A stretch of DNA of 58,427 bases from an uncultured Acidobacteriaceae bacterium (lineage in GTDB: Bacteria > Acidobacteriota > Terriglobia > Terriglobales > Acidobacteriaceae), in the NCBI GenBank assembly GCA_964246195.1, contig CAXTPY010000001.1:4099-62525 (forward strand), in the 5' to 3' direction. A model generated the notes under the pieces. It searched no databases, had not been told where the DNA came from, and saw nothing but the letters and a program-made list of their open reading frames with translations. Within the stretch, counting starts at the first letter, position 1. Each line of letters begins with the position of its first letter. This document shows positions 1 through 26,982 of the stretch, one piece after another. The translations under genes were made by a program, and so were the position numbers.

Positions 1-567
1 CACCGGATGGAGCCGTATAGCGTTCACCCAGTGCCAGGCGAGGACGTCGAAGAGAGTCTTCTCGTAAATTGGGAACCAGTTGTAGACAGTTCTCCGACTC
101 GTAGTGAGAGACCGGTTGACACTCCAAGGAGACGATCGAGCGCGGGTGGTTGATTCTTCCGCTCGAATGCCGATGCAGTTCACGATGATTCTGTGGGGCA
201 AGCTACGAATGAATTTTTCGATCGGACCCCGCCTCAGATCCGACGTGCATTGCCGAAATTGTGGCGAGGGGAACATACCGCGCCGTTCCACCATCTCTAA
301 GTAGGTTCGCTTTGGATTGCGGACCACTGTTAGGTCTAGGCCAAATTCGGCAGACCGCAATCTTGCCCAGTCTGCGGCTGAAATGGGCGATTTGTGTTCA
401 AACCCTGTGTCGGCCATCACGGCATAGGTAGGGCGTTCCGGAAATTTCTGACGCACCAAACCCAGCATTCTTGTCGAGTCTTTGCCGCCAGAGTGGTTCA
501 CTATGAATGCGACATCGCCACCGTGTTCTTGCGTCAGGCAACATACGTCTTCCATTTCGTTTGTCAT
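1..567 (-). CDS. PAPS reductase / PP-loop family protein (CysH/DndC-like); 3' part runs off the window
   Basis: Not in the ORF track. Manual translation from ATG 567 (AAGGAG RBS): MTNEMEDV...VNHSGGKDSTRML...ADTGFEH...RQCTSDLRRGPI...CIGIRAEESTTRA...NWFPIY. SGGKDS PP-loop, DTG and GIRxxES motifs; frame open to position 1. Confidence 0.88.
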   Translation of the reverse strand, partial: MTNEMEDVCCLTQEHGGDVAFIVNHSGGKDSTRMLGLVRQKFPERPTYAVMADTGFEHKSPISAADWARLRSAEFGLDLTVVRNPKRTYLEMVERRGMFPSPQFRQCTSDLRRGPIEKFIRSLPHRIIVNCIGIRAEESTTRARSSPWSVNRSLTTSRRTVYNWFPIYEKTLFDVLAWHWVNAIRLHPV

Positions 568-819
568 TTGCGAGCTCCTTCTCTCTTGTAAGTGCATTCC
601 AAACGCGGATCTTCATGCTGATCTGCCGATTCGCCGTACCAACTGCGCACACAAGGGGATAGTCAGGTTGTAAGTGACTCAACTCTCAACGCTTAGAAGG
701 CGAGCAATCTGTTCAAAGGGATGCATTGTCACGGCAATGGGACGTCAAACGCCGCGCATCAAACAGGTGTGGGGAAGGAGTTCGCTTGTGAGCGGGTGTT
801 GACCAATGGAGATAGAACA

Positions 820-1590
820 TTAGTCAGCAAAGAGCGCGCGGAAGGGCACAACTTCCGAGCCTTCAGCGACGAGAAGAGTGTTCGCATCGAGCAGGTCCCG
901 ACGAAAGGATTCGCAGAGAGCGATCCCGATTCGCTTCGCTACACCTGTCATTTCGAGAGCGAGCAAATACAGAATATTTCGATCGGAAGTGAGATAAAGC
1001 ACGACCTCCACAGTCTGGTCGCGGCCAAGTGTCTCCCGAATCTCCTTGTATCGAGCAGAGGCCTTGGCGGTTCGCTCATACTCGATCGCAAAGATTTGCA
1101 ATTCATTCTCAAACCAAATTTCCGCGATTGCGTCGTAGTCCTTCGCAACTCGACTCTCCAGAACCAAGTTTCGAGACGCTATTTCAAGTTCACCTTGCCA
1201 GGACCGAAGCATGCCTTGCCTCGCCAACGCCAGCCGTATATTGACCAGTTCCATGGCATGTGGAACTTGATTGGGGTGAATAATCCGTTCGGTTGTGGAG
1301 GGCAGGGAAAGGAGGTAGTAGCCTCTTGACTCAAGAACTCGCAGCCCGAGTGCCGTAATTGCGAAGATCGGTTGACCACGAAATCTGTCCTGTTTGAAGC
1401 GTTGGATCAGGTGGTGTTTCTCCAGCCGACTCACCCGCCAGTGAACTATCCTGCGCATTTTCTCGGTTTCATCCAAGATAAGAAGCTCGCATAGTTGGTC
1501 GAACGAAAGGGCTCGCGCATTTCTGACATGCAGCAGAACTGGTATATCGCGCTCATCGGAGATCGAGACATAGCCCTTGAAATATCTCAC
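820..1590 (-). CDS. Replication-relaxation (Replic_Relax-like) protein: wHTH plus PD-(D/E)xK-like domain
   Basis: N-terminal HTH-like region (LSFDQLCELL...RLEKHHLIQR), H-x-x-E segment (HAMELVNI), DYDA...FAIEYERTAK; downstream of virD4. Confidence 0.7.
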   Translation of the reverse strand: MRYFKGYVSISDERDIPVLLHVRNARALSFDQLCELLILDETEKMRRIVHWRVSRLEKHHLIQRFKQDRFRGQPIFAITALGLRVLESRGYYLLSLPSTTERIIHPNQVPHAMELVNIRLALARQGMLRSWQGELEIASRNLVLESRVAKDYDAIAEIWFENELQIFAIEYERTAKASARYKEIRETLGRDQTVEVVLYLTSDRNILYLLALEMTGVAKRIGIALCESFRRDLLDANTLLVAEGSEVVPFRALFAD

Positions 1591-2792: not shown

Positions 2793-3566
2793 CTAGGCGC
2801 CTTTGAGTGACGCATTGCGGCGCCGCTCCTGATCGAGCAGGAGGGTCGTCTGATTAAGACGCTGTTTAAGATTCTGTTCGCTGTTCTGCAGCGCTTCGAC
2901 TCGCCGCTGTAGCAGAATGCTCGCCTGTTGTGGATCCATTGGCAGACCGCCCACTGTCTCGTCAGGTCTGTCTATATTGAGACGTAGCTGGGTCGGATCT
3001 CCATTGAATCCCTTGTTTACCGACTTCGCAGTTACCTTCTGAACGTTCTTGTTCAAACTCCCGCTCCCTTCCTTCGCCGTTTCCGATGTTTGAGCTTTCA
3101 GCATCAACTTCCGCTCCACGTCACCATTGTGCGTCTCTACCAGACGATTGAACTGATCAGTGCGACGGGCGATTTCGATGCGGTCGCTCACTCTCCCGTT
3201 CCAGAGCTCGGCGATCAGGGCGGCAGCGATTACTTCCTTCTTGTCGGCGGAACGCCACTGCAATAAGACTGCGGCGACCGCCGTCGTCAGCAGAAGAAGT
3301 GTGACGACGTTGGACCAGAAGTACAAATCCTCAACGGTCTGCTCCACTATGGCGTCTCTTCCAGTCTGCATCGAGGAGCCATAATCATTGCCGTTCGCGT
3401 TAATCTTGTCGAGAACGTAGTCGAAGAAACCCCGTTTACTATGGGTTGGCTGTGCAGGGGATGCGGGCGGCTGGCTCTGAATCTGTCCAAAGCTGGTTGA
3501 TTCAAGAAGAAAAAGAATGAAGAAAAACGCCAGAAGTCGTAGCGCGAAGGGACGTTGCATGCTCAC
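2793..3566 (-). CDS. Hypothetical membrane protein with signal peptide, one TM segment and C-terminal coiled coil
   Basis: Hydrophobic N-terminus, TM (VVTLLLLTTAVAAVLL), heptad-like tail; overlaps the virD4 stop codon. Confidence 0.75.
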   Translation of the reverse strand: MSMQRPFALRLLAFFFILFLLESTSFGQIQSQPPASPAQPTHSKRGFFDYVLDKINANGNDYGSSMQTGRDAIVEQTVEDLYFWSNVVTLLLLTTAVAAVLLQWRSADKKEVIAAALIAELWNGRVSDRIEIARRTDQFNRLVETHNGDVERKLMLKAQTSETAKEGSGSLNKNVQKVTAKSVNKGFNGDPTQLRLNIDRPDETVGGLPMDPQQASILLQRRVEALQNSEQNLKQRLNQTTLLLDQERRRNASLKGA

Positions 3567-5356
3567 TCTCCAGAGGTAAAATCGAGCGACACGCCCGCTG
3601 TTCTTCTGCGGCGCTGTTTGCGGTTTTCGAGGTCTTTGAAACGCAGATTGACTCCAAGCTCAGGATCGATGTAACTGTGCATTTTCGGATATAGGCGCGG
3701 GGACAGACCTTCCAGACGGAAGCTTGGAGCGCGGCGAACATGGAGGTGTGCGTGGCGTGTACCCTCCCGGCTATCGACCATGAGGACCTCCATCTGGCCG
3801 ACTGGAAGGTTCTTGATGTGCTCCTCCCGAGCACGCGTCTCCTTCATTTCGCTTTCACTCCCCGTTCCGGTTTCGGTGTACTTGGCAGAGAAGATTCCTG
3901 TTCTGCGGACCGCCAGGTTGCGCCGTTTCGTCGCGACCTTGGCCGAAGCTTTCAGAAACCACTGTGCTGTGTTCTCCTCTGAAACATTCATGATCATTTT
4001 CGTTCCCGGCGCCGAAGATACCTCGTCCGAAAACGCCTGGCTGACTCTCTGTAATTGGGGGAGACTTTGGAACGAAAATAGAAACGACACTCTGGCGCCG
4101 CGGGCGGTCTGAAGGACCTGAGTAAATCCGGGATAGGCAAAGGGAGCGAACTCATCGAGGATGACGGAGAACAGTGGTTCGTCCGCATCTCTGTCGGCAG
4201 GGGACTGCGCGTATCGTTTGCCAACCATCAGTTGAATGTTCTGTAGCAGGATTTTCCCCAATGCTTCTACCGCACGTTGATTGCGGTTTGTGTTGAGTGA
4301 AACAAAGAGGATAAGGTCGTCCTCAAAGACTTCGTCAAGTGTCAGCAAATCCTGGTAGGAGCCGGTCACAATCGACAGCTCATCCTCAAGGAAGCTCAGC
4401 AATTCATTCAGGAGTCCTTGAATCTTTTCTACGCGCTCACGGTCGGCGAATGATCGCTGCAACATGCGCACAGACATTTCGAAGTTGAGCCGCCTTTGCA
4501 TCGAAATGTTCGGCAAAGTGATGAGTCGGGCCTTCGCAACCTCGATCTGCTCCTGGAGCACCTTTTCGTCGAGCGCCATTACGAGGACATCGTAGATATT
4601 GAAGAGCCTTCCCGTGTACTGCAAGATGCGAACGAGGTCAGAAAGATAGGCCTCCTGGTGGCCTTTGAAGAAATCCTCTCGCAGCCCGAACGATCGGAAG
4701 ATAAAGTTGACATGTTCCTGGTAGGCGTCGTCGAGTGCGTAAAAAGGGTTGTAGCGCACAGACTCAGATGGGTGTGTAGGATCGAGGACGCGGAGATCCT
4801 GAAGCCGGCCGGCCGCCTCGATATGTGGTAGCAGCCGGTCCAGGAACTCGCGCTCGCCTTTGCCGTCGAAGATGATCATCGGCATCTTCCGCGAACCAAA
4901 CCGCCGCTTCAGGTCCTGAGAGATGATGTTTTCGAGGAAGGTCGACTTACCGGCTCCGGTGCCGCCCACGATAACACCATGCTTCATTCTCACTGGGTCA
5001 GGCCACAACCAGGCTTCCTTGTGTACGTTGTAACCGAGCAACGTGGCGGCGTTCTGGTTGGCCTCAGCAGCGATCGACGCATCCTTTGATCCGGCAACGA
5101 AGAGCGGTGGATGCGGCCAGTTCGCCTCCCGCTTGGCCCTTCTGCCAACCAATTGCGCAACGACGAGACCACCTCCGAGGAACAGGATGGCGCAATACAT
5201 GAAGATCTCCGCGCATTGTTGGTTGCGGAGATGCAACCGAGAGACCGCGACATACCAAACGAATCCGATCACGGCACAACCCATCAACATGAAGACAGCT
5301 ACGAGGTCATGCGGTCCTTGCTGTTGAGGATGTGCCCGATCCGAATATGGGCTCAT
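3563..5356 (-). CDS. virD4: Type IV coupling protein (VirD4/TraD/TraG family)
   Basis: Two N-terminal TMs, Walker A GGTGAGKS, IFDGKG, RYNPF, Walker B VILDEFA, ARGARV and FQSLPQL motifs. Confidence 0.92.
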   Translation of the reverse strand: MSPYSDRAHPQQQGPHDLVAVFMLMGCAVIGFVWYVAVSRLHLRNQQCAEIFMYCAILFLGGGLVVAQLVGRRAKREANWPHPPLFVAGSKDASIAAEANQNAATLLGYNVHKEAWLWPDPVRMKHGVIVGGTGAGKSTFLENIISQDLKRRFGSRKMPMIIFDGKGEREFLDRLLPHIEAAGRLQDLRVLDPTHPSESVRYNPFYALDDAYQEHVNFIFRSFGLREDFFKGHQEAYLSDLVRILQYTGRLFNIYDVLVMALDEKVLQEQIEVAKARLITLPNISMQRRLNFEMSVRMLQRSFADRERVEKIQGLLNELLSFLEDELSIVTGSYQDLLTLDEVFEDDLILFVSLNTNRNQRAVEALGKILLQNIQLMVGKRYAQSPADRDADEPLFSVILDEFAPFAYPGFTQVLQTARGARVSFLFSFQSLPQLQRVSQAFSDEVSSAPGTKMIMNVSEENTAQWFLKASAKVATKRRNLAVRRTGIFSAKYTETGTGSESEMKETRAREEHIKNLPVGQMEVLMVDSREGTRHAHLHVRRAPSFRLEGLSPRLYPKMHSYIDPELGVNLRFKDLENRKQRRRRTAGVSLDFTSGE

Positions 5357-5589: not shown

Positions 5590-5591
5590 GA

Positions 5592-6437
5592 CTACAGAAC
5601 GGCCTCAACCGTGAGCGGCCGGTCCTGGGCAGTGCCGAAGTTCAATTGATAGATCTGAGGAGGATTCCCTTGTGAACACTCGATGCTGACCACACCTGTC
5701 GTCTTCTGGCCTGGTGGAAGATCATGGCCGAGGGAATCTGCCTGGACGACGGTCAAGGTTGATCCCGGCTTCGTCTTGAAGAAGCCGAAGGTCTGCGCAG
5801 AAAGCTGATGGTTACGCAAACCCAGCAGAGAGATCGGAAGTTGTGTCGGCAGCGGAGCCGAGACGTCGGGGGTTGTTAAGCGAAACGGAGCATTTGACTG
5901 GTTGCTGATGGAGTAGCGGATATAGAGCTGGTCCTTCGAACGATATACCTGCTCGATATCGACCTGTACCTGGCCAACCGTGTGCTTTCCAGGGTCATGC
6001 GCTATATCCTGGACTCCCATCATGGCCTGAGAGAGGACCAGCGATGCGATCTTATGAATCTCTGCGTCTGTGGGCTCGGTAGAAGCGTGCGCAGCCATGT
6101 GAGTATCGGCCGGAGGTTCGTTACGAATGAGCACATCCATAGTGGCGAGCTGACCTGCGGGATCAAGCTCGTAGCTGAGCTGCCGCGACGCTGTCCACAC
6201 GAAGAGGTTGGTTGAAACCTTCTCTCGGAGCGGCATGACGAAGATCTTATCGTCGTGACGCTCCACCTTGAAACTGTCCGGGTCGGCGACGGCGAGTGTC
6301 GTCACTGGCTCCCCAAATTGCAGAACGGTGAGGTGATTGAGCGATGTCTGAACGTGACAGATCTGGCTCAGATTGGTAGTCTGCGCCCCAGCAATCGCGA
6401 CCGCGAGAGCAAAGGGGATGATAATGAGCGTCTTCAT
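5592..6437 (-). CDS. VirB9/TrbG/TraK-like T4SS core protein (paralog 2)
   Basis: Signal peptide from ATG 6437 (GAGGAGG RBS); TVLQFGEPVTTLAVAD...KIFVMP...TNLFVWT resembles the VirB9 N-domain and the 21251-22213 protein. Confidence 0.7.
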   Translation of the reverse strand: MKTLIIIPFALAVAIAGAQTTNLSQICHVQTSLNHLTVLQFGEPVTTLAVADPDSFKVERHDDKIFVMPLREKVSTNLFVWTASRQLSYELDPAGQLATMDVLIRNEPPADTHMAAHASTEPTDAEIHKIASLVLSQAMMGVQDIAHDPGKHTVGQVQVDIEQVYRSKDQLYIRYSISNQSNAPFRLTTPDVSAPLPTQLPISLLGLRNHQLSAQTFGFFKTKPGSTLTVVQADSLGHDLPPGQKTTGVVSIECSQGNPPQIYQLNFGTAQDRPLTVEAVL

Positions 6438-6470
6438 AGCGGCCTCCTCGGGCGCATGATCCAAAATGGA

Positions 6471-6506
6471 AAGGAGAAGCCAAGCCAGAGGCTTTAGCTT
6501 CTCCTT
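6471..6506 (-). terminator. Intrinsic terminator-like hairpin after the polymerase-like gene
   Basis: AAGGAGAAGC-C-AAGCC-AGA-GGCTT-TA-GCTTCTCCTT stem-loop, followed on the minus strand by TCCATTTT. Confidence 0.55.
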
Positions 6507-6511: not shown

Positions 6512-9091
6512 TTAAGAGTGTTCGAGTGATCCCGGAACACTCGTGTTTTCGAAGATGAGCGAACGCTTCCCCTTGTACTGAAAGAGAAAGACCTTCTTCT
6601 CGCCATCGGGGCCTTCTGGATTGACGATGCGTTCAACGAGCCAGGCGCGTTGCTCACTGTCAAACCAGACGTAACCGTTGATGACCCTTGGAAGGCGTAC
6701 TCGAACCCGCTGACCGCCGGTGACCTCTGCGAAGGTATCGACAACCTCTTGCGGAAACGATTGGAAGAGAACAGCGCCGGAACCTGTGCCACCAGTGACG
6801 ACAGTGTTCATAGCCTGTGCCCATGCCCGTCGATTCTCCTCCTTGCCTTGGGCCCAATAGTGCACGAACAGGTGGAGCGAATTGAACTGATCTTTCGCAT
6901 CTTGCTCGTGTTCCCAGAGCGCCGATTGTGCCTTGTTGCGCGCAATCACCGCGGACCGCTTTTGTTCCTTGTCCTCGCTCTTGCGCACGGCCTCCCATAG
7001 CGCCTGAGCGTTCTTCAGTTGCAGTTTGACCTCTTCCTCGCGCTGCACAATCCGGCTCGCAATATCTGCATAGATCGAATTGACCAGTTGGCACTCCTCG
7101 AACATCTCCTTCGTGACCGGTTCGCCAGAGAAGAGTCCGCGGAAGTCCTCGATCGACATCTTCTCTTCGAAGCTGCCGCCTAGTTCTCCAGGAAGAAAGC
7201 CAAGCTCCTTGCGTAGAACGTTGTAGAGCCTGCCAACCTTGTCTGTGTCCGCAACCTCAAGAAAGGCTGGTAGATCCGAGACCCTGCGCTCACGTTTATG
7301 CCTGAGCCAAGGGGCTTGTGCTACCTCTTTCCGGATTTCGCTGACCACAGATTCATCAATCCCGACCCGGTGTTTCAACGAGTCGAGTGCGTTTTGCAGT
7401 TGCTGGACGAGCTTGTAGGCCAGGTCTGGACGTCCCGCCGCAAGACACGAGGTCTTCAGATCGGTGATGGAACCGATACGATTCCCGCGTGCCTTCATCG
7501 CAACCAGGTACACATTCCACCAGGGAGATTTGGCCTTTTCGTGCTTCGTCTTTTCCTGCTGGAACTTCTCTCCGTACGCAACCCGTCCCGCAATAAACTT
7601 CGGGTACTGATCGGACGGCATCACGCAGATGGTGTCGAAGTCGAAGTCACCGCCATTCTTCTTCGCCGTCTCCGAATGAAGGATGTAAGTCCCCTCCATG
7701 CGAAGCTGACGCTCAAGAATGTAGGCCACGATCGTTTCGTCGAGGTCGGGCACACCTAACGCCTTTTTGAGCGCCGGGATGAGCTCGTCGTTGTTGACAT
7801 GACGGACAGGCAGCAGGTCCTCTTGCATCCGAATGGGATAACGGATGCAGAGGCCGTGTTCTGCCGTCAACGATGTAATGGAAGTGTCCTGAGGTATCCA
7901 GTCCGAGGCCGAGAGAACTTTCCCGCGGTACTCGATCAGGACGCCATCATCCGCGAGAGCGAAGGATGGCAACTTCAGATCACCACCAGTGCAGGTACGA
8001 AATGCCCAACGTGCCAACTTTCGGTTCAGCTGATTTGCAACGTAGGGAAATTTGATGCTGGTTCCACTACGGTCAGCCAGAAGTACAGCTTCCGCAGGCT
8101 CCCATCCTTCCGAAGCAGGATTATTTTCCTGGTCCAGAACGTCAGGGTCAAAGCTGGCATCTTCGTCGATCGTCGTAACCTCAGACTTGCCGATCACTTC
8201 GAACAACGATTCGTAGTCACTTTCGTCCCAGGCTTTCCTCACTTTGCGAATCCGCTCGATCGCTCGAAGCATGATCTCGAACTGAAGGGCCTCGTCCGAA
8301 GCGTGTTCGATCAAGGTGTAACTCGACCCGAACTCCGATACGCGGGACAACTCCTTGATCCCGAGAATCGCTGGACCAGAGAACATCCTGCCCGATGTGC
8401 CCAGTTGCGGAAGGAAACGAACTCCGCCCTTGAGAGAAGGCTTGCAGGCACTCTCCGGCAGAATGATGTCGACCTCGAGCTTGTCAGCTACGCGATCGCT
8501 CATTGCCTTCAACGCACCTTTTGCCTGCTTTGGTTCGCGCGCATCGAATGCCAGCCGAAACTGACAAAACCGATTTGTGCCGGTCTTCAGCTTCCGGTAA
8601 AGGGATTCACGCACCCAGCCTCGGCAATCGTTGGTGCCAAGGTCGTGATCCTTGACGACAACGATGTTAAGGTCGGGCTCCTCCACCATCAGCTTGCAGT
8701 CGGAGACGAGGATCGCGAAGTACACGATCGCTGCCTCGGGCCAATGCTGAAAGCGCTCAGCAATCTGCTTCGCATGCGCCTGATCGACGAAGTAAAACTT
8801 GCCATCCTTCGCCGAACCACTCGCACCCGCGAGCTTGTAGTCGACCCCACCGTATACGAGCTTCGCCATGCGGTTTTCGACCACAGACTGCTCGTACGGC
8901 GTCAACTCATGCGGTACACTGACACGTGCTACCTGGATGCCGGGATAGATCTGCGCGAGGAGCTTTCCCTCGAGCGTATCCTTGCGGCCCAGTTTGCTTT
9001 GCTTGCGAGTCACTTCTCCAGACGCATCGATCTTCAACTCTAGGATGAGCTGGTTATCGATGGCCGTGTTCTGTGTCCTATTCGCTGTCAT
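6512..9091 (-). CDS. Single-subunit two-barrel RNA polymerase homolog (cellular RdRP/QDE-1/YonO superfamily), ~859 aa, catalytic loop GGDFDFD
   Basis: ATG 9091 with GAGGAG RBS. Motifs in order: ASGSAKDGKFYF, GTNDCRGWV, CQFR...KGAL, IILPESACK, IRYP, NGGDFDFD (DFDFD at 7634-7648), IGSITD, QNALDSLK, APWL, VGRLYN. Confidence 0.8.
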   Translation of the reverse strand: MTANRTQNTAIDNQLILELKIDASGEVTRKQSKLGRKDTLEGKLLAQIYPGIQVARVSVPHELTPYEQSVVENRMAKLVYGGVDYKLAGASGSAKDGKFYFVDQAHAKQIAERFQHWPEAAIVYFAILVSDCKLMVEEPDLNIVVVKDHDLGTNDCRGWVRESLYRKLKTGTNRFCQFRLAFDAREPKQAKGALKAMSDRVADKLEVDIILPESACKPSLKGGVRFLPQLGTSGRMFSGPAILGIKELSRVSEFGSSYTLIEHASDEALQFEIMLRAIERIRKVRKAWDESDYESLFEVIGKSEVTTIDEDASFDPDVLDQENNPASEGWEPAEAVLLADRSGTSIKFPYVANQLNRKLARWAFRTCTGGDLKLPSFALADDGVLIEYRGKVLSASDWIPQDTSITSLTAEHGLCIRYPIRMQEDLLPVRHVNNDELIPALKKALGVPDLDETIVAYILERQLRMEGTYILHSETAKKNGGDFDFDTICVMPSDQYPKFIAGRVAYGEKFQQEKTKHEKAKSPWWNVYLVAMKARGNRIGSITDLKTSCLAAGRPDLAYKLVQQLQNALDSLKHRVGIDESVVSEIRKEVAQAPWLRHKRERRVSDLPAFLEVADTDKVGRLYNVLRKELGFLPGELGGSFEEKMSIEDFRGLFSGEPVTKEMFEECQLVNSIYADIASRIVQREEEVKLQLKNAQALWEAVRKSEDKEQKRSAVIARNKAQSALWEHEQDAKDQFNSLHLFVHYWAQGKEENRRAWAQAMNTVVTGGTGSGAVLFQSFPQEVVDTFAEVTGGQRVRVRLPRVINGYVWFDSEQRAWLVERIVNPEGPDGEKKVFLFQYKGKRSLIFENTSVPGSLEHS

Positions 9092-9323
9092 ATTCTCCTC
9101 ACTTGTCTGGCGTTTCCGACAAAGTGACAAGACTGGCTGACGCCGGTTGCTTGTCTCATCGCCTGGCCGCCCGGGTTAGGGGTGGGTGTGGACCGAACCA
9201 GGCTCGAGAGTGCAAACCGGGTCAGCGGAATTCCTCATCGCGCGTGCGACAAGGCGTCAAAGGAGGCCTACAGGGACCGTTTTCAGGTATGTTTCCTCTT
9301 TGAATCCGTGCTGACCTTTGGCC

Positions 9324-9623
9324 CTACTTAGGTATGGGCCGCTTCACCAAGATTGGAGATCCTCCTTGCATCTCTGCCTCCGCCTTATAAGCGAGGACGG
9401 AATAGATGATTCCGTCCTTCGACTGAAACGCTTTGATAAGCGCGTCGCCCTCGCTGGGAACCTCCAGTCCCAGCTCGGGTTTCGCGACCGTCGATCCATC
9501 CTTGGCCAGGAAGTATCGAACGACCTCTTCCGTCTGCTGGCGCGCTTTGCGGCCCCGTTTCGGCTCGCCAGCCGTTCCAGCGTTCGGCTGCGTCTCAGGA
9601 ACTTTTGCTGCAGTCTCCATCAC
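9324..9623 (-). CDS. Small hypothetical protein (99 aa) coupled to virB8
   Basis: AAAGGAG RBS, overlaps the virB8-like stop codon; basic KRGRK patch. Confidence 0.7.
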   Translation of the reverse strand: MMETAAKVPETQPNAGTAGEPKRGRKARQQTEEVVRYFLAKDGSTVAKPELGLEVPSEGDALIKAFQSKDGIIYSVLAYKAEAEMQGGSPILVKRPIPK

Positions 9624-10363
9624 TGGTCTCCTTTCTTTCTGGCTTCATCACGACCGAGAAGGGCGTCCGGCGCGGAAAGGATGCGGTCTCGACGTTCGCC
9701 GTCGATGGGACGTTCGTTATACTCCGCGATCCAAAGCCCATCTGGGTTTGTGTCGGATCTACGGTCCGCAATCAGGCGCACGCGGTACTGGTTTACAAAG
9801 TGGTCGGTCGATTCGGTCCCCTTCGAAAGATGGTGGACATCCTTGACGCCGAACACCAGATAGGTGAGGGGCTCGCCCGCAACCGCGTCCAATTCGCGCA
9901 GATGGAATACCGACTCGATCTGATCGTCATCGATCTTGCCGCGCGTATTGTCGTCAGTCATCGCCTTGATTGTGTCGGCGCGCAGGTTGCGGGTCATCAT
10001 ATTGAGGCTGTCGGCCCAGCGTTCATCGACATCGGCGGTCGAATAGTTTAAGTAACTCGTAAGGAAGCGCTTCACGAAAGCCTCATCGAGAAATTCGTCC
10101 GTGCCTGCTGTTGCGGCATCGCTGACGCCACCCCTTACCGATTTACCAAGGACCATGGCATCGCCATTGGGGCCGATGCGGATGACAGTTGGCTGCTGTA
10201 GCCGCACAAAGATCGCGAAACCGATCGCAAGCAGCGCAACGGGGACAGTCAGGAAGGCGAGCAGCCATGCTTTGTTCGCATTTGCCTTGAGCGCTCCGTC
10301 GACTTCATAGTATTTCGGCGCTGCCGCCGCAATTCGATCTACTGTCACCGTATTGGTCTTCAT
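9620..10363 (-). CDS. virB8: VirB8/TrbF-like T4SS protein
   Basis: Single N-terminal TM, then PTVIRIG, FVKRFL...Y and C-terminal NPDGLWI (VirB8 NPxG motif). Confidence 0.82.
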   Translation of the reverse strand: MKTNTVTVDRIAAAAPKYYEVDGALKANANKAWLLAFLTVPVALLAIGFAIFVRLQQPTVIRIGPNGDAMVLGKSVRGGVSDAATAGTDEFLDEAFVKRFLTSYLNYSTADVDERWADSLNMMTRNLRADTIKAMTDDNTRGKIDDDQIESVFHLRELDAVAGEPLTYLVFGVKDVHHLSKGTESTDHFVNQYRVRLIADRRSDTNPDGLWIAEYNERPIDGERRDRILSAPDALLGRDEARKKGDQ

Positions 10364-10377: not shown

Positions 10378-11802
10378 TTATTCGGAACCCCTGGTCGCGT
10401 TGCCTGCCAAAGTGCGTGTTGTTATGCGCGCGGCATGATAGGCACCCCAGGTGCCAAGGTTGTAGCGGTGAACACTTGGCCCTTTCTTCGCCATCGCGGT
10501 TGGCCGCATACCACCTCCCGCCCTGCCGCTAACACCGATGGACGATTCGCCCCTAACGCTTGAAATCCCAACGTTGCTGTGCGCTACATCCGCAGCAGAG
10601 TCCGAACTCTCGTCCCCCCCCATTGCATCGCTGAGAAAGCCTCTGATCTGCTCGGCGTGACCCTCCGCGGTAGGCTCGCTACCGTAGGAAGGGAAACCGC
10701 TCTTTGATTCACTGCTTGCAGAGGTGGCTGCCCTGGGAGACTGCTGGGGTGGCGCCGGTTGATGGGCACCGGCCGATGTTGTTAGTGGTCGAGCCGAGCC
10801 GGCGCTTGCACCCGCACCCGTTGAAGACGCCCCTGCAGGACTTCCGGTACCCGCGCCACTTCCTCCGGCAGCCAATCCTGCTGCTGCTCCCTCTACAGCT
10901 GCAGCGCCTACAGTCAGAGCCGTTACGGCTGTCCCTACCATCGCAGCGGCGGTACTTCCTACATCGCCGCTCACGATCCTCTTAGCAATAAACGGGATGA
11001 TGGCAATCGACAGAGAGTAGATGATGCTTGCCGCACCGATCAGGAATGACCCCTCGAGATTTCCCAACCCTCCCAGGAAGTTGTTCTGGTTGAGCATTTG
11101 CCCGACCTGGCCCATCTGGACCGCGCTGAGCAGAGCACCAAAACCTCCATACAAGATCGGCCACGCATTCCAGATGAAGACATTTTCGACATACGCCTTG
11201 GCAATACGGTTTGTCGCTCCAAGCGGCATGAGCGCAATCACGATCGGGCCAAAGATATACAAGACCGAACCATAAAAAATGTAGAAGAAACCGAAGATCG
11301 CGATAACGAATGGATAGAGAATATAAGCGACCAGAATCAGGAGACCGTCGATCAGACCAGCCATGGACCCTGTGACGAGTCCCCACATCTGCTGAACTCC
11401 ATCCTGGCTGTACTGGGTACTGATATCGGTCTTCCAATTGTCCAGAAGATTGCCGAAGCCTGTTGCGTTGCCAATCCAGTTTCCTCCATTCACAAAGCCC
11501 TGGTTGACCGTGGTAAAGATGGCGCTGTAGTTCATCACGACGACGGCTGTAACTATGTATTTGATAAGGCTGGGTCCCAGTCCGCGCACATCGCCGCCGT
11601 GCAAGGCAGATTGGTAGACCTGCCAGAGAAAACCAACGAGAAGTATCACGTAGGCGACGTCTTGCATGCCGGAGGTGATGCTCGTGGAGTTGATTCCTGA
11701 CACGGCCTGCGTCAAAAAACTCTCAAACAAACTCAACTGCGTCCCCTGAAAGAATGCGAGAGCCGCGATGCCGGAATGGATGTGAAAGATCGAAAGCATC
11801 AT
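10378..11802 (-). CDS. virB6: VirB6/TrbL-like polytopic T4SS protein
   Basis: Multiple TM segments, FGPIVIAL motif, Gly/Ala/Ser-rich tail typical of TrbL; lies between virB5-like and virB8-like genes. Confidence 0.82.
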   Translation of the reverse strand: MMLSIFHIHSGIAALAFFQGTQLSLFESFLTQAVSGINSTSITSGMQDVAYVILLVGFLWQVYQSALHGGDVRGLGPSLIKYIVTAVVVMNYSAIFTTVNQGFVNGGNWIGNATGFGNLLDNWKTDISTQYSQDGVQQMWGLVTGSMAGLIDGLLILVAYILYPFVIAIFGFFYIFYGSVLYIFGPIVIALMPLGATNRIAKAYVENVFIWNAWPILYGGFGALLSAVQMGQVGQMLNQNNFLGGLGNLEGSFLIGAASIIYSLSIAIIPFIAKRIVSGDVGSTAAAMVGTAVTALTVGAAAVEGAAAGLAAGGSGAGTGSPAGASSTGAGASAGSARPLTTSAGAHQPAPPQQSPRAATSASSESKSGFPSYGSEPTAEGHAEQIRGFLSDAMGGDESSDSAADVAHSNVGISSVRGESSIGVSGRAGGGMRPTAMAKKGPSVHRYNLGTWGAYHAARITTRTLAGNATRGSE

Positions 11803-11809: not shown

Positions 11810-12706
11810 TCACTTGCTGGTCAGCGCTCCCGTGATGAGGCCGTTGTTGTTTGTGCTGTCTGAGGTCGCGAGTTTCGCAATCTCGCTTTGGTTGGCCAAG
11901 TCGATGCTGCGGGTTCTCATCAACTCGGCGAGAGCCTCCTGGGTATATGCGTTGGCACGCACCACCCACACATCAGCCTCTGCTTCAACAATCGGAGCGC
12001 TGCCGGGGGCGGCCTGCTGGATCTGCTGGCCCATCTGGGTCGCCTCAGTGAGTTCAGCCTCCGCTAGCGCGTCGATCTGGAGCGCGCGCTTCATCGCATC
12101 CTGAGCCTGAGCGTCCGTCATGTCGGTCATCGTCCGGACTTGAGGCGACGCCGAGTTCTGCGCCATCACTACGCCATACACCGATTGATACTGGGAAGAC
12201 ACGGTCGGCACATTGCTCGCGTTGCGAGAGAGCAGTGTGGTCTCGAGGCTTTGCGACTGCGGCAAGGTGGCGCTTGAGACGCTCACATGAAACATGTTGT
12301 TGATGTTGCTGAACTGGCCTTCGAGCTGTGTCACCGAGCTCTTGGCCTGATTGATGACCGTCAAGGGATACATCACCTGCTGTTCGTAACTGGAGATGCT
12401 CTGCTCGGATTGGTTGATGGTCTTGAGAGGAGCCGCCATATAGGTGCTCATAAGCGACTGCATTTTCTGCAAGGCCGCTATGATCGCTGCCATGTCGATA
12501 CCGAATTGGCCGTTCGCACGAGTCGGCACGATGAGCGGCAGGGCAAGCGCCACCATCGCCGTCTTCAAGAGGGTTGGCCGATACCAGGGCCGCCGAGGCT
12601 GAGTGGCTTCGATGTCAGGCGCCCTCTTAGCGGGCTCCGGTTGTTCTTTACGCCGCCAGAACAATGGTTTACGCAACTTGGTTGGGCTTTTCTTCGAGTC
12701 CGTCAT
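11810..12706 (-). CDS. VirB5/TrbJ-like exported helical protein (paralog 2)
   Basis: Signal-like segment (…ANGQFG), Gln-rich helical body, similar to the upstream paralog; probable ATG 12706. Confidence 0.62.
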   Translation of the reverse strand: MTDSKKSPTKLRKPLFWRRKEQPEPAKRAPDIEATQPRRPWYRPTLLKTAMVALALPLIVPTRANGQFGIDMAAIIAALQKMQSLMSTYMAAPLKTINQSEQSISSYEQQVMYPLTVINQAKSSVTQLEGQFSNINNMFHVSVSSATLPQSQSLETTLLSRNASNVPTVSSQYQSVYGVVMAQNSASPQVRTMTDMTDAQAQDAMKRALQIDALAEAELTEATQMGQQIQQAAPGSAPIVEAEADVWVVRANAYTQEALAELMRTRSIDLANQSEIAKLATSDSTNNNGLITGALTSK

Positions 12707-12717
12707 AGCGATTCTCC

Positions 12718-13569
12718 TCAATGGCCGGTAAGTGCTCCGGTGACCATACTGTTGATCCCACCGGATGCGGTGTTCCTACTCTTCACGAGCGCGTTGTCAT
12801 GGGCGATACGGCCTGCCTCTTGACGTAGCTCTGCCGCAAGCATCTTTTGGATGAAGGCCTGACACCGCAGATTTGCGACCTGGGCCTCTGCCGTCAGATA
12901 CGGATTGGAGCCCGGGGTACTCGTGGCTACCTGATTCTCCATCTGATTTGCGGCCTGCAGGGTGGCGTCCTGGCCTTGGTCGGCGATGAGCGTGGTTTTG
13001 AGATTCTGCTGGCCCAAGGCGTCATCCATGTCGATCATCACGCGGTCCTGCGGCGAGGCTGTGTTCACTGCTGGGATAGCTCCATAGTTGGCCGTAAAGC
13101 TCGTCTGCAGCGATGGGATCTGAGTCGTGAGGCGGCTGTGGAGAAGGCTTTCAAACTGCTGAGGACCAGCCAAGGTCGCGCTAGAGAATGGCGTGTTGAA
13201 GATCTGGTTCATGGCGCTTCGATAGGTGTTGATCGAGTTCGAGACGAAGCCTCTCGCCTGGTTGATTGCCGCAAGCGGCCACACTGTCGCCTGATAGAGC
13301 TGCTGGACTTGCTGCTGAATCTGGTTGATTGCCTGAAGCGAACTCCCCATATCGCTTTGGATCGAACTGAAGATCGAGTCGAAAATGCCGAGGAACTGTC
13401 CGTGGGCCTGTCGCGGTACTGCCAAACACGACTCCGCAACGAGGACGGTTATCATGGCTCTCTTCTTCCAACGAGATTGCTTCAATGCCGTTGGCATTGA
13501 GGATGGCTCTGCGTCGGGGGGCAGGTGACTGACGAGTTGCTCGGTCGTGGGTTTGATGGCTTCGTTCAT
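12718..13569 (-). CDS. VirB5/TrbJ-like exported helical protein (paralog 1)
   Basis: ATG 13569 overlaps the virB4 stop (ATGA); …AHGQFLG, PLAAINQA, SSATL, ASPQDR, PGSNP shared with paralog 2. Confidence 0.62.
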   Translation of the reverse strand: MNEAIKPTTEQLVSHLPPDAEPSSMPTALKQSRWKKRAMITVLVAESCLAVPRQAHGQFLGIFDSIFSSIQSDMGSSLQAINQIQQQVQQLYQATVWPLAAINQARGFVSNSINTYRSAMNQIFNTPFSSATLAGPQQFESLLHSRLTTQIPSLQTSFTANYGAIPAVNTASPQDRVMIDMDDALGQQNLKTTLIADQGQDATLQAANQMENQVATSTPGSNPYLTAEAQVANLRCQAFIQKMLAAELRQEAGRIAHDNALVKSRNTASGGINSMVTGALTGH

Positions 13570-16214
13570 TTGGATATCACCTCCTGCATCTGTCCGGAGA
13601 CTTCTACGGAGAGGGGAGGAATCTCCGCGAGTCCGCGCGGATATCGCGAAGCAAGCGCTTCGTACGCTTGGATCAAAGGGAGTTGCAGGTGTTGGTTTAG
13701 CCACCATCTCCGATAATTGCGCTCACGGGCATAAGTCGTCGTGATCCAGTAGTCAACTGCGCTCGGAACAATCCGAATCGCATGGGTGGACTCAGCCTTC
13801 TCGCCAACCGCAATGAGGAACTCCGCGCTATGGCCTTTCTTCGGGTGAGCGAATGTCTTGATCTGGTTGAGTGCTGTTTGATTGAGGTGGACGTGGTCGC
13901 GCAGCGCTGTCATGTCGCCCGGCTGTTTGCCGATGATCTTGGTCGTTGCGTTCTTGACGATGCCGGCCCCGTGCTCGTTCGGACGATCCGGCGTGCCTAC
14001 GAAATCTTCTGGCGTCTGGCTAATACCCCACACGCTGGCATTGCGCTTCCGAGCCGTGCGAAAGAGCTGGACAACAACGCTCGCCAGAATCGGGGATTCG
14101 AGCAATGCCCAGCACTCGTCGAGCAGCACAATACTCGGTTGTCCGGTCGATCCAGACGCCCGATAAGTTGCTGTATGAGCGATGAGCAGACTCATGGCCC
14201 GTTCCAGACGCGGATCATCCTTCAGCTTTTCCACGTTGAAGTAGAGCCAAGGATTGTTCAACTGAACGGTCGTTGGCCGGTCGAAGAGGCGCGCATAGGG
14301 CCCTTCATCCACCCAGGCACGGAGCTTCGTCGAAGCCATCTGGGCCATCGCGTTGATCTTCTGATTGCGGTCCCGGTCCTGCCAATGCGCCAGTTCCGCC
14401 GCGAGGTCTCCGAAAAGCGGGACCGGGTTCGAGGTCTTCGCGCTGCAGCGCTTATAGGTGGAGGCAATCGCTTCGAGCAGGACGCTGTCGAGCAGGTCGA
14501 TGTCCAGGTCGGGAGGTGTGTTCTCCCCAAGCATGTGCCGAGTGAGATTCTTGAGGAACGAAATCTGGTCGTTGGAGGGCTTGGTCTCTCCTCTCGTAAG
14601 ATCCCAGGGGTTGATGGTCTGGTCGCTGTCGAGCGACATCTCGATCATTTCGCCGCCCATGAGTTCTACTAAGGGTTGATAGGAATCGCCGCGTTCAAGT
14701 ATGGAGATGAGAGGATTGCCGCGGGCCGCCATCAGCAACATCTGCTGCGCAGCGAGAGTTTTGCCGCCGCCGCTCTTGGCCATCAGCAGGCCGTTCGCGT
14801 CGGAAAGGTCAGGATCGAACATCGAAAAGGGGATGAGCTGCCGATAGGGTGTCTCAAACAAGATCAGGGGGCTACGGCGAGTCCCAGTCCACGGCATCTC
14901 GACAGGGACAAGATCGGCAACGTTGGACGTGAGCATGTCCTGGTCTCGCTTGTCTGGCTCGGCCATACCGGGCAGTGTCCCAAGAAAGATGCGCCGCTTC
15001 GCAATCGTCTCCATCACCCCCTTCGCACCATTCATATGCGTGAAGGCGTTCAAAACCTCCTGCGTTCGATTCGCAAGCTCGCGTTCAAAGCGTTCCAGGT
15101 CACCAAGGGTGACTGCCTGCTGTGAGGTCCGCACGACGACAGATAGGCTGAGCTTTGCCGTCTTGAGAGAAGAGGAGATAATGTCCCGCTGGATCTGTAA
15201 GAGCTGAGCCTGCGCTACCTCGGCTTCAGGATTGGATTTAAAGTTGCCATTCGCGTCCTTCTGCGCGGCGGTCATCTTCTGCAGGCGCTTCTTATACCCC
15301 TTGAGCACCTTCACTTGATCGGGGATGACGACCTGTCCGCTGATGACCACAGGAAAACCGAGGGTAGAGAAGTTCTGCAACATGCCGGGGAATGTTGCGT
15401 CAGGCAGCTCTTTGAGACTCACGACGGAATAAAGATATCCATCGATGTTGATGTAGCTCTCGGTCTCATTGAGGATGCTCGACTGCGTTGCCTGCTCTCG
15501 TGCGCTGCGATACTCGAACATCTCGTCGCCAGGCACATATGGACGACGGTCGCGCCTGGACGGGTGCTGGGAATGCTTAAGTTCCTCGAATAACCCCTGC
15601 GTCGATAATCTCCTGGGACCTAGATTGGCTGCCTCCATCGATCCCTCGATGCCCCGGAGTATCGACTCGAATTCCGCTAAGTAGTTCTCATGCTCCCTAC
15701 GGGTCCGCTGGATTGCCTTCTTCTGGCTCACGGTGAAGCCGCCAAGCTTCCGGTTCTGCTGTGCGGAGTGGTACAGCTTGGCGTGGGTGCGCGGGTCCCA
15801 CACGAGATAGATATGGAGACGATTCTCGAAGTAAAAGCCGTTGTGCTCCTTTTCCATCCACATCCTCATCCGATGTGCATCGAGCGCCATGACCTCCGGC
15901 TGTTCGCTGCGCTGTTGCTGGACGTAGCTGTCGAGGAGGTCGCCAAGATGCTCCGAGATCTCATAGCGAAACTGGAGCCGCATGCTGACGTCGGGAACGC
16001 TGCGAAAGAGGGCTTCGAGCATGGACTTCGTCTGGTTTCGGTCGCCGTCGGTAGCAAAGTAAGCAAGGATGCCTCGTAGTTCATAACCAGCCACGAATGA
16101 CCCATTGGTGCGCACCATCACGTTGTCCCCAGCGGGCAGGTCGCGCAGGGGCAGTAGTTCGCAGACAGCAGGCGACTTGAGCCTTTTCTCGTGCTGCTCG
16201 TAGGTCATTGGCAT
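13566..16214 (-). CDS. virB4: VirB4/TrbE/TraC family T4SS ATPase
   Basis: 882 aa; Walker A AKSGGGKT, INPWD, Walker B LLDECW, RTARKRNAS and ISQ motifs. Confidence 0.93.
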   Translation of the reverse strand: MPMTYEQHEKRLKSPAVCELLPLRDLPAGDNVMVRTNGSFVAGYELRGILAYFATDGDRNQTKSMLEALFRSVPDVSMRLQFRYEISEHLGDLLDSYVQQQRSEQPEVMALDAHRMRMWMEKEHNGFYFENRLHIYLVWDPRTHAKLYHSAQQNRKLGGFTVSQKKAIQRTRREHENYLAEFESILRGIEGSMEAANLGPRRLSTQGLFEELKHSQHPSRRDRRPYVPGDEMFEYRSAREQATQSSILNETESYINIDGYLYSVVSLKELPDATFPGMLQNFSTLGFPVVISGQVVIPDQVKVLKGYKKRLQKMTAAQKDANGNFKSNPEAEVAQAQLLQIQRDIISSSLKTAKLSLSVVVRTSQQAVTLGDLERFERELANRTQEVLNAFTHMNGAKGVMETIAKRRIFLGTLPGMAEPDKRDQDMLTSNVADLVPVEMPWTGTRRSPLILFETPYRQLIPFSMFDPDLSDANGLLMAKSGGGKTLAAQQMLLMAARGNPLISILERGDSYQPLVELMGGEMIEMSLDSDQTINPWDLTRGETKPSNDQISFLKNLTRHMLGENTPPDLDIDLLDSVLLEAIASTYKRCSAKTSNPVPLFGDLAAELAHWQDRDRNQKINAMAQMASTKLRAWVDEGPYARLFDRPTTVQLNNPWLYFNVEKLKDDPRLERAMSLLIAHTATYRASGSTGQPSIVLLDECWALLESPILASVVVQLFRTARKRNASVWGISQTPEDFVGTPDRPNEHGAGIVKNATTKIIGKQPGDMTALRDHVHLNQTALNQIKTFAHPKKGHSAEFLIAVGEKAESTHAIRIVPSAVDYWITTTYARERNYRRWWLNQHLQLPLIQAYEALASRYPRGLAEIPPLSVEVSGQMQEVISK

Positions 16215-16408: not shown

Positions 16409-16753
16409 TCACTCCTCGTCTCCGGCGATGTAACTCTGCGTCAACTCCGAATCTCGTTCAAGTGCGCACCATGCTTTCGGAGAGAAGAATGAGCGGACCA
16501 AATCTGTGAGGTAACCACGGGGTCTGCCGTACTTGAACAAGATCAGGAACGGGAAGGCCAACGCCGGGACAACGAACTCCATGAAGATGTTGAGCGGCAT
16601 TCCAAAGACATGTGCGGTGTCTCCAACGAAGTGCGCCAGCAGGTTCATCAGCGCGGCCAACGCAAGCACAAGAATCAGGTCTTCGAACTCAAGGCCCAGA
16701 AACGACACCTTCGTATTGAGGTTGCGATGAACTGGCGTCAAATCGAGACTCAT
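16409..16753 (-). CDS. virB3: VirB3/TraL-like membrane protein
   Basis: 114 aa, PVHRNLN...FLGLEFEDL, two TMs, GRPRGYL; located just upstream of virB4. Confidence 0.75.
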   Translation of the reverse strand: MSLDLTPVHRNLNTKVSFLGLEFEDLILVLALAALMNLLAHFVGDTAHVFGMPLNIFMEFVVPALAFPFLILFKYGRPRGYLTDLVRSFFSPKAWCALERDSELTQSYIAGDEE

Positions 16754-16757
16754 GGAC

Positions 16758-17213
16758 CTACCCTCCGACTCCGTGCGCTTGTGTTACCAGCGATTCGGCC
16801 AGTCGCATCATGCCCGAAACCATGAGGGCAGCGACCGCGGCGACGAACTTCCTGATCCAAGTCGAACCCGGATAGATCTCTGAGACCACACCGCCCATGT
16901 GCAGGGCCATCGCCGCCAGTTGCGTCAAGGCGAACATGGGGAGGATCACGTTGGCCGTCCAGTTGACCAGGCTCATGCTTGCCATCCAAAAGGCGTCAGC
17001 ATTGGTGGGACCGGCGTTCTGGACGAAGCCTTCCAAAGCGCGAAGCATTCCCGAACACATCAACGACGCGAACCCTCCATAGAGGAGGTGTTCGAAGGGG
17101 CTGCTCTTGCTGTAGCGATAGACAGCGCCCGCAAAGAACATCCCGGCCATCGTCGGCATGATCGTGTTCCCGGCCCAGGATGCGAGGTTCGTGATTGCGC
17201 CGTTGAGACTCAT
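16758..17213 (-). CDS. Membrane protein made of two tandem VirB2/TrbC pilin-like repeats
   Basis: Repeats NLASWAGNTIMP...LMCSGMLRALEGF and SLVNWTANVILP...LMVSGMMRLAESL. Confidence 0.7.
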   Translation of the reverse strand: MSLNGAITNLASWAGNTIMPTMAGMFFAGAVYRYSKSSPFEHLLYGGFASLMCSGMLRALEGFVQNAGPTNADAFWMASMSLVNWTANVILPMFALTQLAAMALHMGGVVSEIYPGSTWIRKFVAAVAALMVSGMMRLAESLVTQAHGVGG

Positions 17214-17223
17214 CGTTGGCTCC

Positions 17224-17886
17224 TCATGCCGCCATGGCTTGAAAGAGTGTGAGGAGACCGCTCACACTCAGGAAAGAGATCGCTGCAAAGACCAACCGCG
17301 TCCAAGGTCTGTGCCTGACAAAGTTGATGACTGCTCCTACACAGGCAAGTCCGGCTGCTGCCGGCATGATCTGCCCCACCAGGTAATTCCATAGGGAGGC
17401 AAGCATGTCGGTTGTCGCATACTGGCTACCGTCGTTCCATCCCTGCATGAGCTGCATCGTCGCGGACAGCGACATCAGGAAGAGAGCGGCTACGATCGAA
17501 GCGAGAGGATTCTCCCCTCCGGCTCCATCGAGGCAAGCCTTGAGAACGAAGTACGCTGCCAGGACCGGAACGAACTTCGCGACAACAATCTGGTTGACGA
17601 AGTTCGTAAAGATCGTTTGCATGCTCGCGAGCCAACTCGTGCCGATCGACCCGCTCCCCGACGGGACCGTGATGCCTTGCGCCGCAATCCAGGACAGAAG
17701 TTGCGGGAGCGTCAGAAAGACGACAGTCCACAATATCCACTTCCCAACTCTTCCATTGACATGGAAGTTCGTTCCTCCTTCATGCCGCAGGCTCACTCCC
17801 GCCGCTGCCAGCGTACAGAACGCAGCGGGAACGGCGAGACCAAGCAGCAACTGAAGGAGGTCCGAAAGGAATTGCGGCACAGGCAT
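17224..17886 (-). CDS. Membrane protein with two to three tandem pilin-like repeats
   Basis: ATG 17886 (AAGGAG RBS); the repeat SLWNYLVGQIMP...FLSVSGLL is clear, and two earlier hydrophobic hairpins are similar. Confidence 0.65.
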   Translation of the reverse strand: MPVPQFLSDLLQLLLGLAVPAAFCTLAAAGVSLRHEGGTNFHVNGRVGKWILWTVVFLTLPQLLSWIAAQGITVPSGSGSIGTSWLASMQTIFTNFVNQIVVAKFVPVLAAYFVLKACLDGAGGENPLASIVAALFLMSLSATMQLMQGWNDGSQYATTDMLASLWNYLVGQIMPAAAGLACVGAVINFVRHRPWTRLVFAAISFLSVSGLLTLFQAMAA

Positions 17887-17896
17887 CGCGGGCTCC

Positions 17897-18331: not shown

Positions 18332-18616
18332 ACGTTTTCTCTCCTGGACTCGGCTGCTCTTGGCCTCCGCGTCGAAACAGAGAATGTGGCGAAATGGAAA
18401 CTCGGTCAAATGTCCAAAACAACGATCTGGAGGGTGGATTGTGAAATATCTTCAGTCGTTCGTTCGATTTGGATCAGTAGAGATAAGGAGAGCAATCTGG
18501 AGGAAGAAGTGTCCCAGTTTCCGGATTGGCTCGATACAGGACAAAGAGCTAAAATCTTCATCTGTCAGGAATTCTGAGCCTGCCGCGGAGAGTCGCCAGG
18601 TTCAAGGACGACGAAA

Positions 18617-21236: not shown

Positions 21237-21250
21237 CGCTACCGTCCTTT

Positions 21251-23874: not shown

Positions 23875-23977
23875 GAACCCTCCTCCTAACGCGGACCAAG
23901 AATGGGGCGATTCCAAAACTCGGTCAAATTTCCGAGTTCGGCGCCTGTGGAGCGGGGAACTAGGTTTTCTATATTGA

Positions 23978-26908: not shown

Positions 26909-26982
26909 CGGGCCTCCCACTTCAGCTGGAGTGTTGCCCGAACACTGAAATGGGTCAAAGAAACGGGAGGCGGTGTGCGCAA

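Follow-up and report, generated by a model that had tools for sequence, protein, structure and literature searches.

To our knowledge, characterised conjugation systems use the host RNA polymerase. The eukaryotic polymerase of RNA interference (RNAi) is believed to derive from prokaryotic enzymes that resemble RNA-dependent RNA polymerases (RdRPs). The single-chain two-barrel enzymes YonO of phage SPbeta and gp64 of Thermus phage P23-45 are DNA-dependent (PMC5467207; 10.1101/2022.12.01.518664), and QDE-1 of Neurospora, RDR2 of plants and gp66 of phi14:2, a phage of the crAss-like kind, prefer single-stranded templates (PMC9508822; 10.1101/2020.03.07.982082). In the literature, cyanobacterial proteins are grouped with YonO and the eukaryotic RdRPs (PMC5467207, PMC3417536), and prokaryotic RdRP-like enzymes are placed in selfish elements with a guessed role in priming (PMC3417536). 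Here we describe a predicted polymerase of this class encoded in a 58,427-nt stretch of DNA from an uncultured Acidobacteriaceae bacterium (assembly GCA_964246195.1, contig CAXTPY010000001.1), referred to as the window. The stretch carries a tmRNA-integrated integrative conjugative element (ICE) with an integrase, a relaxase, a coupling protein, VirB4 and mating-pair genes, and the polymerase is a fixed core gene of an acidobacterial family of such elements. Since two-barrel enzymes have already been grouped in the literature, the class itself is known; new here are this polymerase branch and its conjugative context.

The polymerase gene and the two structured segments that flank it are as follows.

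6512..9091, minus strand: predicted single-chain two-barrel RNA polymerase, 859 amino acids (aa), ATG at 9091, stop at 6512, metal-binding loop D482-F-D484-F-D486
9092..9323, minus strand: conserved multi-stem leader, the last hairpin predicted over the ribosome-binding site; no Rfam family
6463..6506, minus strand: strong hairpin with a T-rich tail directly 3' of the polymerase stop, terminator-like or stabilising

The preliminary description of this DNA had reported an open reading frame (ORF) of about 859 aa with a series of cellular RdRP motifs, and all motifs quoted there are present in the translation in the order stated. An in-frame TTG at 9130 is an alternative start, giving 872 aa. 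The proposed similarity to PF05183 was not recovered with the polymerase itself, which matched no family in Pfam (0 families at E 0.01), NCBIfam or PHROGs and no PDB sequence; five distant homologues also gave no Pfam match at E 0.05, three homologues matched the unnamed phrog_34895 weakly, and the Atlas neighbour cluster of the polymerase is 46% PF05183, with a weak recognition score. The protein belongs to a large unnamed family (1332 matches among 7997 scored candidates; 561 representatives at 50% identity), the named matches of which are Acidobacteriota. After alignment of 76 homologues, 29-86% identical and drawn from 244 proteins plus full-length representatives, the residues D155, R179, K191, R417, P419, D482, D484 and D486 were each found to be invariant (76/76). 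By motif order, they would be equivalent to the eight invariant two-barrel residues D709, R738, K743, R962, P964, D1007, D1009 and D1011 in QDE-1 numbering, as given in PMC2919709. The metal-binding loop is DxDFD in 60 and DxDGD in 13 of the 76 homologues. The dN/dS ratio of 0.069 among 13 close loci shows that the polymerase is under purifying selection. Two copies are present in Telmatobacter bradus DSM 23630, and Tunturiibacter psychrotolerans X4BP1 is another cultured carrier. Candidates of 1820-5000 aa included no fused long form, which is weak evidence, the range searched excluding 1505-1819 aa.

The AlphaFold2 model of the polymerase (pLDDT 87.9, pTM 0.84) folds like QDE-1, RDR2 and gp64, in agreement with the pair of double-psi beta-barrels expected earlier. 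Its best PDB match was QDE-1 (E 3.6e-13, TM 0.46), together with RDR2, P23-45 gp64 (3e-7) and phi14:2 gp66 (4e-6), and the matches listed at E <= 0.001 were all single-chain two-barrel polymerases. By a second aligner, RDR2 scored Z 22.8 (606 residues, 5.4 A), QDE-1 Z 20.8 (473 residues, 3.7 A) and gp64 Z 17.1, the first unrelated chain reaching only Z 9.7. The fold match to QDE-1, RDR2 and gp64 covers residues of about 10-790 of the predicted model, and the best viral model matches are phage proteins labelled RdRP. Given the predicted single-chain two-barrel fold, the intact catalytic residues, including the three Asp residues D482, D484 and D486 kept in all 76 homologues, and the fixed position in the ICE, the proposal that the element encodes its own polymerase is upheld. 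The protein is very probably an active RNA polymerase, and its template is probably DNA.

The gene order around the polymerase is conserved. Among 121 retrieved loci with flanks of 1400 nt or more, some records being present twice and kin being non-independent, 119 have virB8 on the upstream side and 116 have virB9 or virD4 on the downstream side, and the order virB8-polymerase-virB9/virD4 is kept down to 42-50% identity. The association with type IV secretion system (T4SS) genes thus holds, and the polymerase is a core gene rather than chance cargo. A total of 301 genomes of the bacterial family include 34 with the polymerase and 37 with VirB4 of this clade (43% identity or more; a 48-residue fragment in genome G533 was left out, and genome G560 is unpublished), both being present in 32 of these 37. 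Among the five VirB4-clade genomes without the polymerase, three contigs stop before the slot, and G453 and G497 have a DUF7673 gene there; G453, the one fully readable polymerase-less relative, is also without virD4 and relaxase matches. A relaxase search in the five genomes, which had no positive control, gave no match in any. In trees of 32 loci, patristic distances of the polymerase correlated with those of VirB4 and VirD4 (r 0.97-0.98), several supported conflicts being comparable to those between VirB4 and VirD4, and mosaic elements exist (G671, VirB4 95%, polymerase 66%).

This conservation bears on the possibility that the enzyme acts outside transfer, in defence, exclusion or addiction (for example, phage-triggered RNA synthesis), silenced by its leader and co-inherited in the operon. 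A hidden ribosome site and insulating hairpins would fit a harmful product, the DUF7673 gene replaces the polymerase in two relatives, and some cyanobacterial relatives lie outside transfer clusters. We nevertheless regard such a role as very unlikely: the fixed position over 42-95% identity and the co-divergence with VirB4 and VirD4 are unlike mobile defence cargo, and the variable slot of this element is a different one, located between virB10 and the pilins.

We tentatively favour, with a probability of roughly 45%, a DNA-dependent polymerase that transcribes its own leader-gene-hairpin unit and the coupling-protein/relaxase block. The host polymerase would start the integrase-side and mating-pair operons; the polymerase mRNA would be stable, with the leader keeping its translation low; and the enzyme, once induced, would drive the genes for DNA processing in a second stage, in the manner of YonO and the SPbeta late genes. 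The proposed share of the host polymerase concerns a promoter-like motif, the copies of which are listed below.

18376..18409, minus strand: motif TTGAC[CT]GA[AG]TTT with 17-nt spacing and a -10-like hexamer, before the pilin-virB8 operon
23894..23927, minus strand: second copy, before the AAA-virB10 operon
starting at 24370, minus strand: third copy, at the small helix-turn-helix (HTH) gene
C1:3059 (contig C1, left of the window), coding strand: fourth copy, before the archaeo-eukaryotic primase (AEP) gene

Four copies in 31 kb compare with 0.008 expected from composition and 0.04 from the host rate, and three more exist in 2.2 Mb. All four are on the coding strand before an operon. In a looser form, the motif precedes AEP in 65 of 85 loci and the first pilin-like gene in 56 of the 85. 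Past the 17-nt spacer, the A at the sigma-70 -11 position is invariant, and relatives lacking the polymerase keep TTGACA-17-TAYTTT. We read the shared motifs as host-type promoters, perhaps with a common regulator. On account of the invariant -11 A and the retention in polymerase-less relatives, the motif was judged unlikely to be the enzyme's own promoter. The earlier suggestion of host-independent transcription of the mating-pair genes is weakened, since these operons start at a sigma-70-geometry motif kept without the polymerase. In this element, no shared motif was found before the leader or before the virB9-virD4-relaxase block. A simple promoter and terminator scan of 5300-10500 detected nothing above chance, and also missed the 3' hairpin. 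Two back-to-back copies of the motif were observed in a small integrative region (G000:C67:8796-10789) with a virB9-like fragment and an integrase, which may be a satellite or remnant.

The 232-nt leader folds better than 200 of 200 shuffles (z -3.65). For 25 non-redundant leaders out of 30, five longer or divergent ones being left out, the mean z was -5.0 on the mRNA strand versus -3.4 on the other strand, the mRNA strand being lower in 23. An automatic consensus, from an imperfect alignment, kept 10 pairs, four of them with two-sided changes, and also showed several changes from C-G to U-G. Opening of the ribosome site requires more than 3 kcal in 22 of the 25 leaders (no control genes), and the site is predicted to be hidden by the leader. 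The leader model gave one match, directly upstream of the polymerase, in 66 of 68 genome loci, with weak or no match in the deepest branches; in a search of 1-28000 against Rfam (E up to 1), only tmRNA models matched. Two other roles of the leader were considered and rejected. It is no repeated element, there being one copy per element, and as an on/off switch it would have two near-equal central pairings (mean 1.5 kcal) with ribosome-site opening unchanged (6.4 versus 6.6 kcal). At the other end of the unit, a hairpin of -18 kcal/mol or lower within 60 nt past the stop was found at 129 of 137 polymerase loci and at 3 of 107 virB4 loci, the other three neighbours giving 16/109, 25/140 and 24/126.

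The polymerase gene itself shows structure at the RNA level. Its sense-strand folding excess over synonymous shuffles was -2.4 kcal per 120 nt versus -0.57 for antisense (13/13 loci); the comparison gave -0.29 for virB4 (12/13 loci) and 1.1 kcal in size for virD4 (11/13). The excess is far smaller with DNA parameters. Fourfold-site divergence was 0.455 for the polymerase versus 0.60-0.61 for three neighbours, and below that of virB4 in 1070/1077 and 45/45 pairwise comparisons (pairs non-independent). Codon bias was rejected as the cause of the low synonymous change, the index being 0.444 versus 0.455 for virB4 (three ATP-synthase genes served as a rough reference), and so was an antisense ORF (414-aa frame, 7799-9043), its stop density being like that of virB4 and virD4. 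These signals, together with the structured ends of the unit and the fact that the top folds are RdRPs, would fit an RNA-dependent enzyme with its own structured RNA (leader, gene and 3' hairpin) as template or regulator; the antisense or amplified RNA made would serve to remember, silence or switch transfer. We consider this improbable: a long-lived mRNA or more recombination in the gene would explain the same signals, mosaics such as G671 being known, and the tested prokaryotic two-barrel enzymes in the literature covered are DNA-dependent, YonO strictly so (PMC5467207). Less probable still is that the polymerase copies its own leader-gene-hairpin RNA, forming inside a conjugative DNA element an RNA-replicating unit, run by an RNAi-type two-barrel enzyme, that times or remembers transfer.

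Contigs of four libraries depleted of ribosomal RNA, from one study, cover relatives of the polymerase gene and leader, with strand and level not given. The RNA libraries X5-X8 have little or nothing outside 6569-9773, and in the DNA-like runs X1-X4 virB4 and the pilins are covered as well. The runs were picked by a stretch with the polymerase gene, share 5-12% of its words and come from one study each, as contigs; owing to this selection and the contig form, they provide no ranking of genes and no evidence of a separate transcript.

The likeness to QDE-1 and RDR2, the nearest folds, is also compatible with an enzyme acting on single-stranded element DNA, either the transferred or the displaced strand, to make early transcripts or RNA primers and R-loops. 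The setting would be the recipient or rolling-circle copying, beside AEP and the single-stranded DNA-binding protein (SSB), possibly after transfer of the enzyme through the channel. QDE-1 and gp66 copy single-stranded DNA well, nearly all element genes are on one strand, the polymerase adjoins virD4 and the relaxase, and the priming function suggested for RdRP-like enzymes of prokaryotes in selfish elements (PMC3417536) would agree with such a role. We hold this somewhat unlikely, since 72 of the 74 loci with 4 kb past the relaxase carry a separate AEP, the C-terminus has no clear charge signal for transfer (median +2 in the last 25 residues; 29 of 76 homologues with net charge +3 or more), and the leader, whose folding favours the mRNA strand and RNA, is unlike a hairpin promoter on the template strand. 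The presence of AEP likewise led us to reject, as the main role, the substitution for TraC/Sog-type primases put forward in the preliminary description, as an AEP primase-like gene and an SSB gene belong to the element itself. The accompanying remark that no primase was recognised is correct within the window, but the AEP gene lies about 1.1 kb past its left edge.

Returning to DNA-dependent transcription of the unit and the coupling-protein/relaxase block, a number of observations weigh against it. The analysis yielded no candidate promoter for the enzyme; this reading accounts neither for the RNA folding along the whole gene nor for its low synonymous change; and the preference of the nearest folds for single-stranded templates favours the single-strand and RNA-templated alternatives. 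Stops or splits are present in the polymerase copies of 5 of the 34 genomes. In G497, the slot is without the polymerase, yet virD4 is present on another contig. A sister T4SS (VirB4 30-34% identical, MOBH-type relaxase) lacks the polymerase gene in 4 of 4 loci, indicating that conjugation in general does not need it. In a distant clade, no clear T tail follows the 3' hairpin, and thus the hairpin may stabilise the RNA rather than terminate transcription.

Read from right to left, the element runs from the tmRNA 3' end, which is likely the attachment site, through the integrase, the HTH gene, AAA-SLT-virB9-virB10, pilin-like-virB4-virB6-virB8 and a 99-aa ORF to the polymerase, and beyond it through a second virB9-like gene, virD4 and three ORFs to a MobC-like relaxase. 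The genes were assigned as follows.

27072..27426, minus strand: host tmRNA, the 3' end adjoining the integrase
25472..27037, minus strand: tyrosine integrase, by family profiles
23978..24370, minus strand: small HTH protein (HTH_23, E 0.03), excisionase-like by position
19935..23687, minus strand: VirB10, second VirB9-like protein, lytic transglycosylase and MoxR/MadB-type AAA ATPase, by family profiles
16409..18409, minus strand: four small hydrophobic ORFs, VirB3-/pilin-like by position and composition only
13566..16214, minus strand: VirB4/TraC-type ATPase, by family profiles
11810..13707, minus strand: two conserved related ORFs, VirB5-like by position only, with no family match
10378..11802, minus strand: VirB6/TrbL-like protein, by family profile
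9620..10363, minus strand: VirB8-like protein (PF04335, E 4e-4, below the Pfam cut-off)
9324..9623, minus strand: conserved 99-aa ORF of no known family with a basic patch near the N-terminus, present in 139 loci
5592..6464, minus strand: VirB9/CagX-like protein (E 2.7e-11), first gene past the 3' hairpin
3563..5356, minus strand: VirD4-type coupling protein (E 8e-11)
820..1590, minus strand: Replic_Relax/MobC-like relaxase (PF13814, above the cut-off)
1..597, minus strand: PAPS-reductase-like ORF running past the left edge of the window
C1:2056-3000, left of the window: AEP primase-like gene (PF22548, E 7e-24)
C1:635-1117, left of the window: SSB gene

The relaxase contains D..E-x-E-R-x2-K-x3-R-Y, which we take to be the MOB_C relaxase pattern, and matches NF041423 at E 1e-8, far below its cut-off. 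The 99-aa protein gave no usable match in the Atlas search. Contig C1 stops 4 kb past the left edge of the window, short of the far end of the element; its end sequence downstream of ssb (C1:1-560) resembles what we take to be the start of a group II intron with a reverse transcriptase.

Several other features were observed along the element. The MoxR/MadB-type AAA gene (22680-23687; NF047784, E 4e-65, below cut-off) is grouped with SLT, virB9 and virB10, and in the sister system an AAA ATPase is located between virB10 and virD4, where VirB11 would be expected. Between the HTH gene and the integrase, the plus strand has an ORF of 308 aa (24542-25468) that matched no family and is a candidate regulator. 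The gap between virB10 and the pilin operon contains 4-5 head-to-tail copies of a 36-nt unit (19268-19447), iteron- or operator-like in appearance. Part of the virB10 3' region is repeated almost exactly over 87 nt (19576-19662 and 20073-20159, 497 nt apart), possibly as a scar or an assembly artefact. Within the PAPS-reductase-like frame, positions 287-307 agree at 19 of 21 letters, in inverted orientation, with 27058-27078, the 3' end of the tmRNA and attachment sequence; lying inside a coding frame, the match was treated as chance.

Among the relatives, a half element in G607 (L166:11855-20000) has polymerase-virB9-virD4-relaxase-AEP directly after tRNA-Thr, with no virB4-virB8 block upstream. 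In G428 (L169:6009-12879), a distant polymerase ORF of 1089 aa is followed by DUF6573, AEP, a PLD-like gene and virB9, so that a primase stands beside the polymerase. Beside the sister T4SS, an Rhs protein with a bacterial Ntox44 domain is encoded (L163:17589-19868).

A dedicated two-barrel enzyme as a core transfer gene likely implies an unstudied step of RNA synthesis in bacterial mating. The polymerase is present in about one-tenth of the sampled genomes (34/301) of an abundant soil family. With Telmatobacter bradus DSM 23630 as carrier, it offers a small model in a culturable host for prokaryotic RdRP-like enzymes, and both the leader, as a cis element, and the promoter map of the system lend themselves to testing. 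A search of the full-text literature, which includes few subscription papers, yielded no paper on this system, although earlier publications may already list the family or a transfer-gene context. In agreement with the preliminary description, no characterised conjugation system with such an enzyme was found there either.

Known ICEs with a MOB_C-like relaxase and T4SS resemble this element in the tmRNA-end integrase, VirB4/6/8/9/10, VirD4, AEP and SSB. Unlike them, it carries the polymerase unit among the transfer genes, two VirB9-like genes, and a MoxR/MadB-type AAA ATPase in the expected place of VirB11.

The phage two-barrel enzymes compared were SPbeta YonO, Thermus phage P23-45 gp64 and gp96, P74-26 gp62 and phi14:2 gp66. 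The predicted fold of the polymerase is shared with gp64 (Z 17.1, 523 residues, 4.4 A), gp96 (Z 12.3) and gp66 (Z 8.3; E 4e-6), and YonO, with 839 aa, is near in size to the 859-aa polymerase, its RxP and DxDxD being alignable. In contrast to the phage enzymes, the polymerase stands in a conjugative context with no phage genes nearby. No phage match was found in 50,697 phage records or in IMG/VR, and a phage origin was rejected for lack of such a match. The term YonO-like, used in the preliminary description, is apt in the broad sense of the literature, but strict similarity to YonO was not found (hhalign E 0.71; hmmsearch -2.5 bits).

By the model, QDE-1 and RDR2 share with the polymerase a single chain with two barrels (Z 18.8-22.8, about 600 aligned residues) and the invariant residues in the same order. 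The polymerase differs from them in its low identity (11-16%), the absence of a direct Pfam match, its location on a bacterial mobile element and the absence of visible RNAi partners.

The nearest annotated relatives are encoded by cyanobacteria: WP_281010132.1 (Pseudanabaena pPg_05), WP_015179628.1 (Oscillatoria pOSC7112.02) and WP_251960805.1 (Nostoc), the last matching PF05183 at E 4.8e-5, just under the cut-off. A search of 72,556 plasmids gave 19 polymerase matches, all cyanobacterial (best E 1e-17), and the family profile scored 183, 78 and 68 bits on three cyanobacterial plasmid proteins; the nearest plasmid relative is 23% identical over 544 residues. The cyanobacterial proteins are presumably those meant by the group in PMC5467207 and PMC3417536. 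They resemble the polymerase in the RYP and DFDGD-type motifs and in location on mobile DNA. The cyanobacterial copies have DFDGD, whereas the acidobacterial family has a DFDFD-type loop in 60 of 76, and they are plasmid-borne, in contrast to the tmRNA/tRNA-integrated acidobacterial elements; none is characterised, and two of the three examined lie outside any visible transfer cluster. The leader model gave no match upstream of the cyanobacterial relatives. The plasmid with the Oscillatoria relative (L195:1497-12832, NC_019730.1) is typed as conjugative and encodes, 4.5 kb downstream of that relative, an ATPase that is weakly TraC-like; the link to transfer genes may predate the acidobacterial family. 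As a single chain with both barrels that is homologous to the cyanobacterial members, the acidobacterial polymerase belongs to the broad YonO-like or prokaryotic RdRP-like group.

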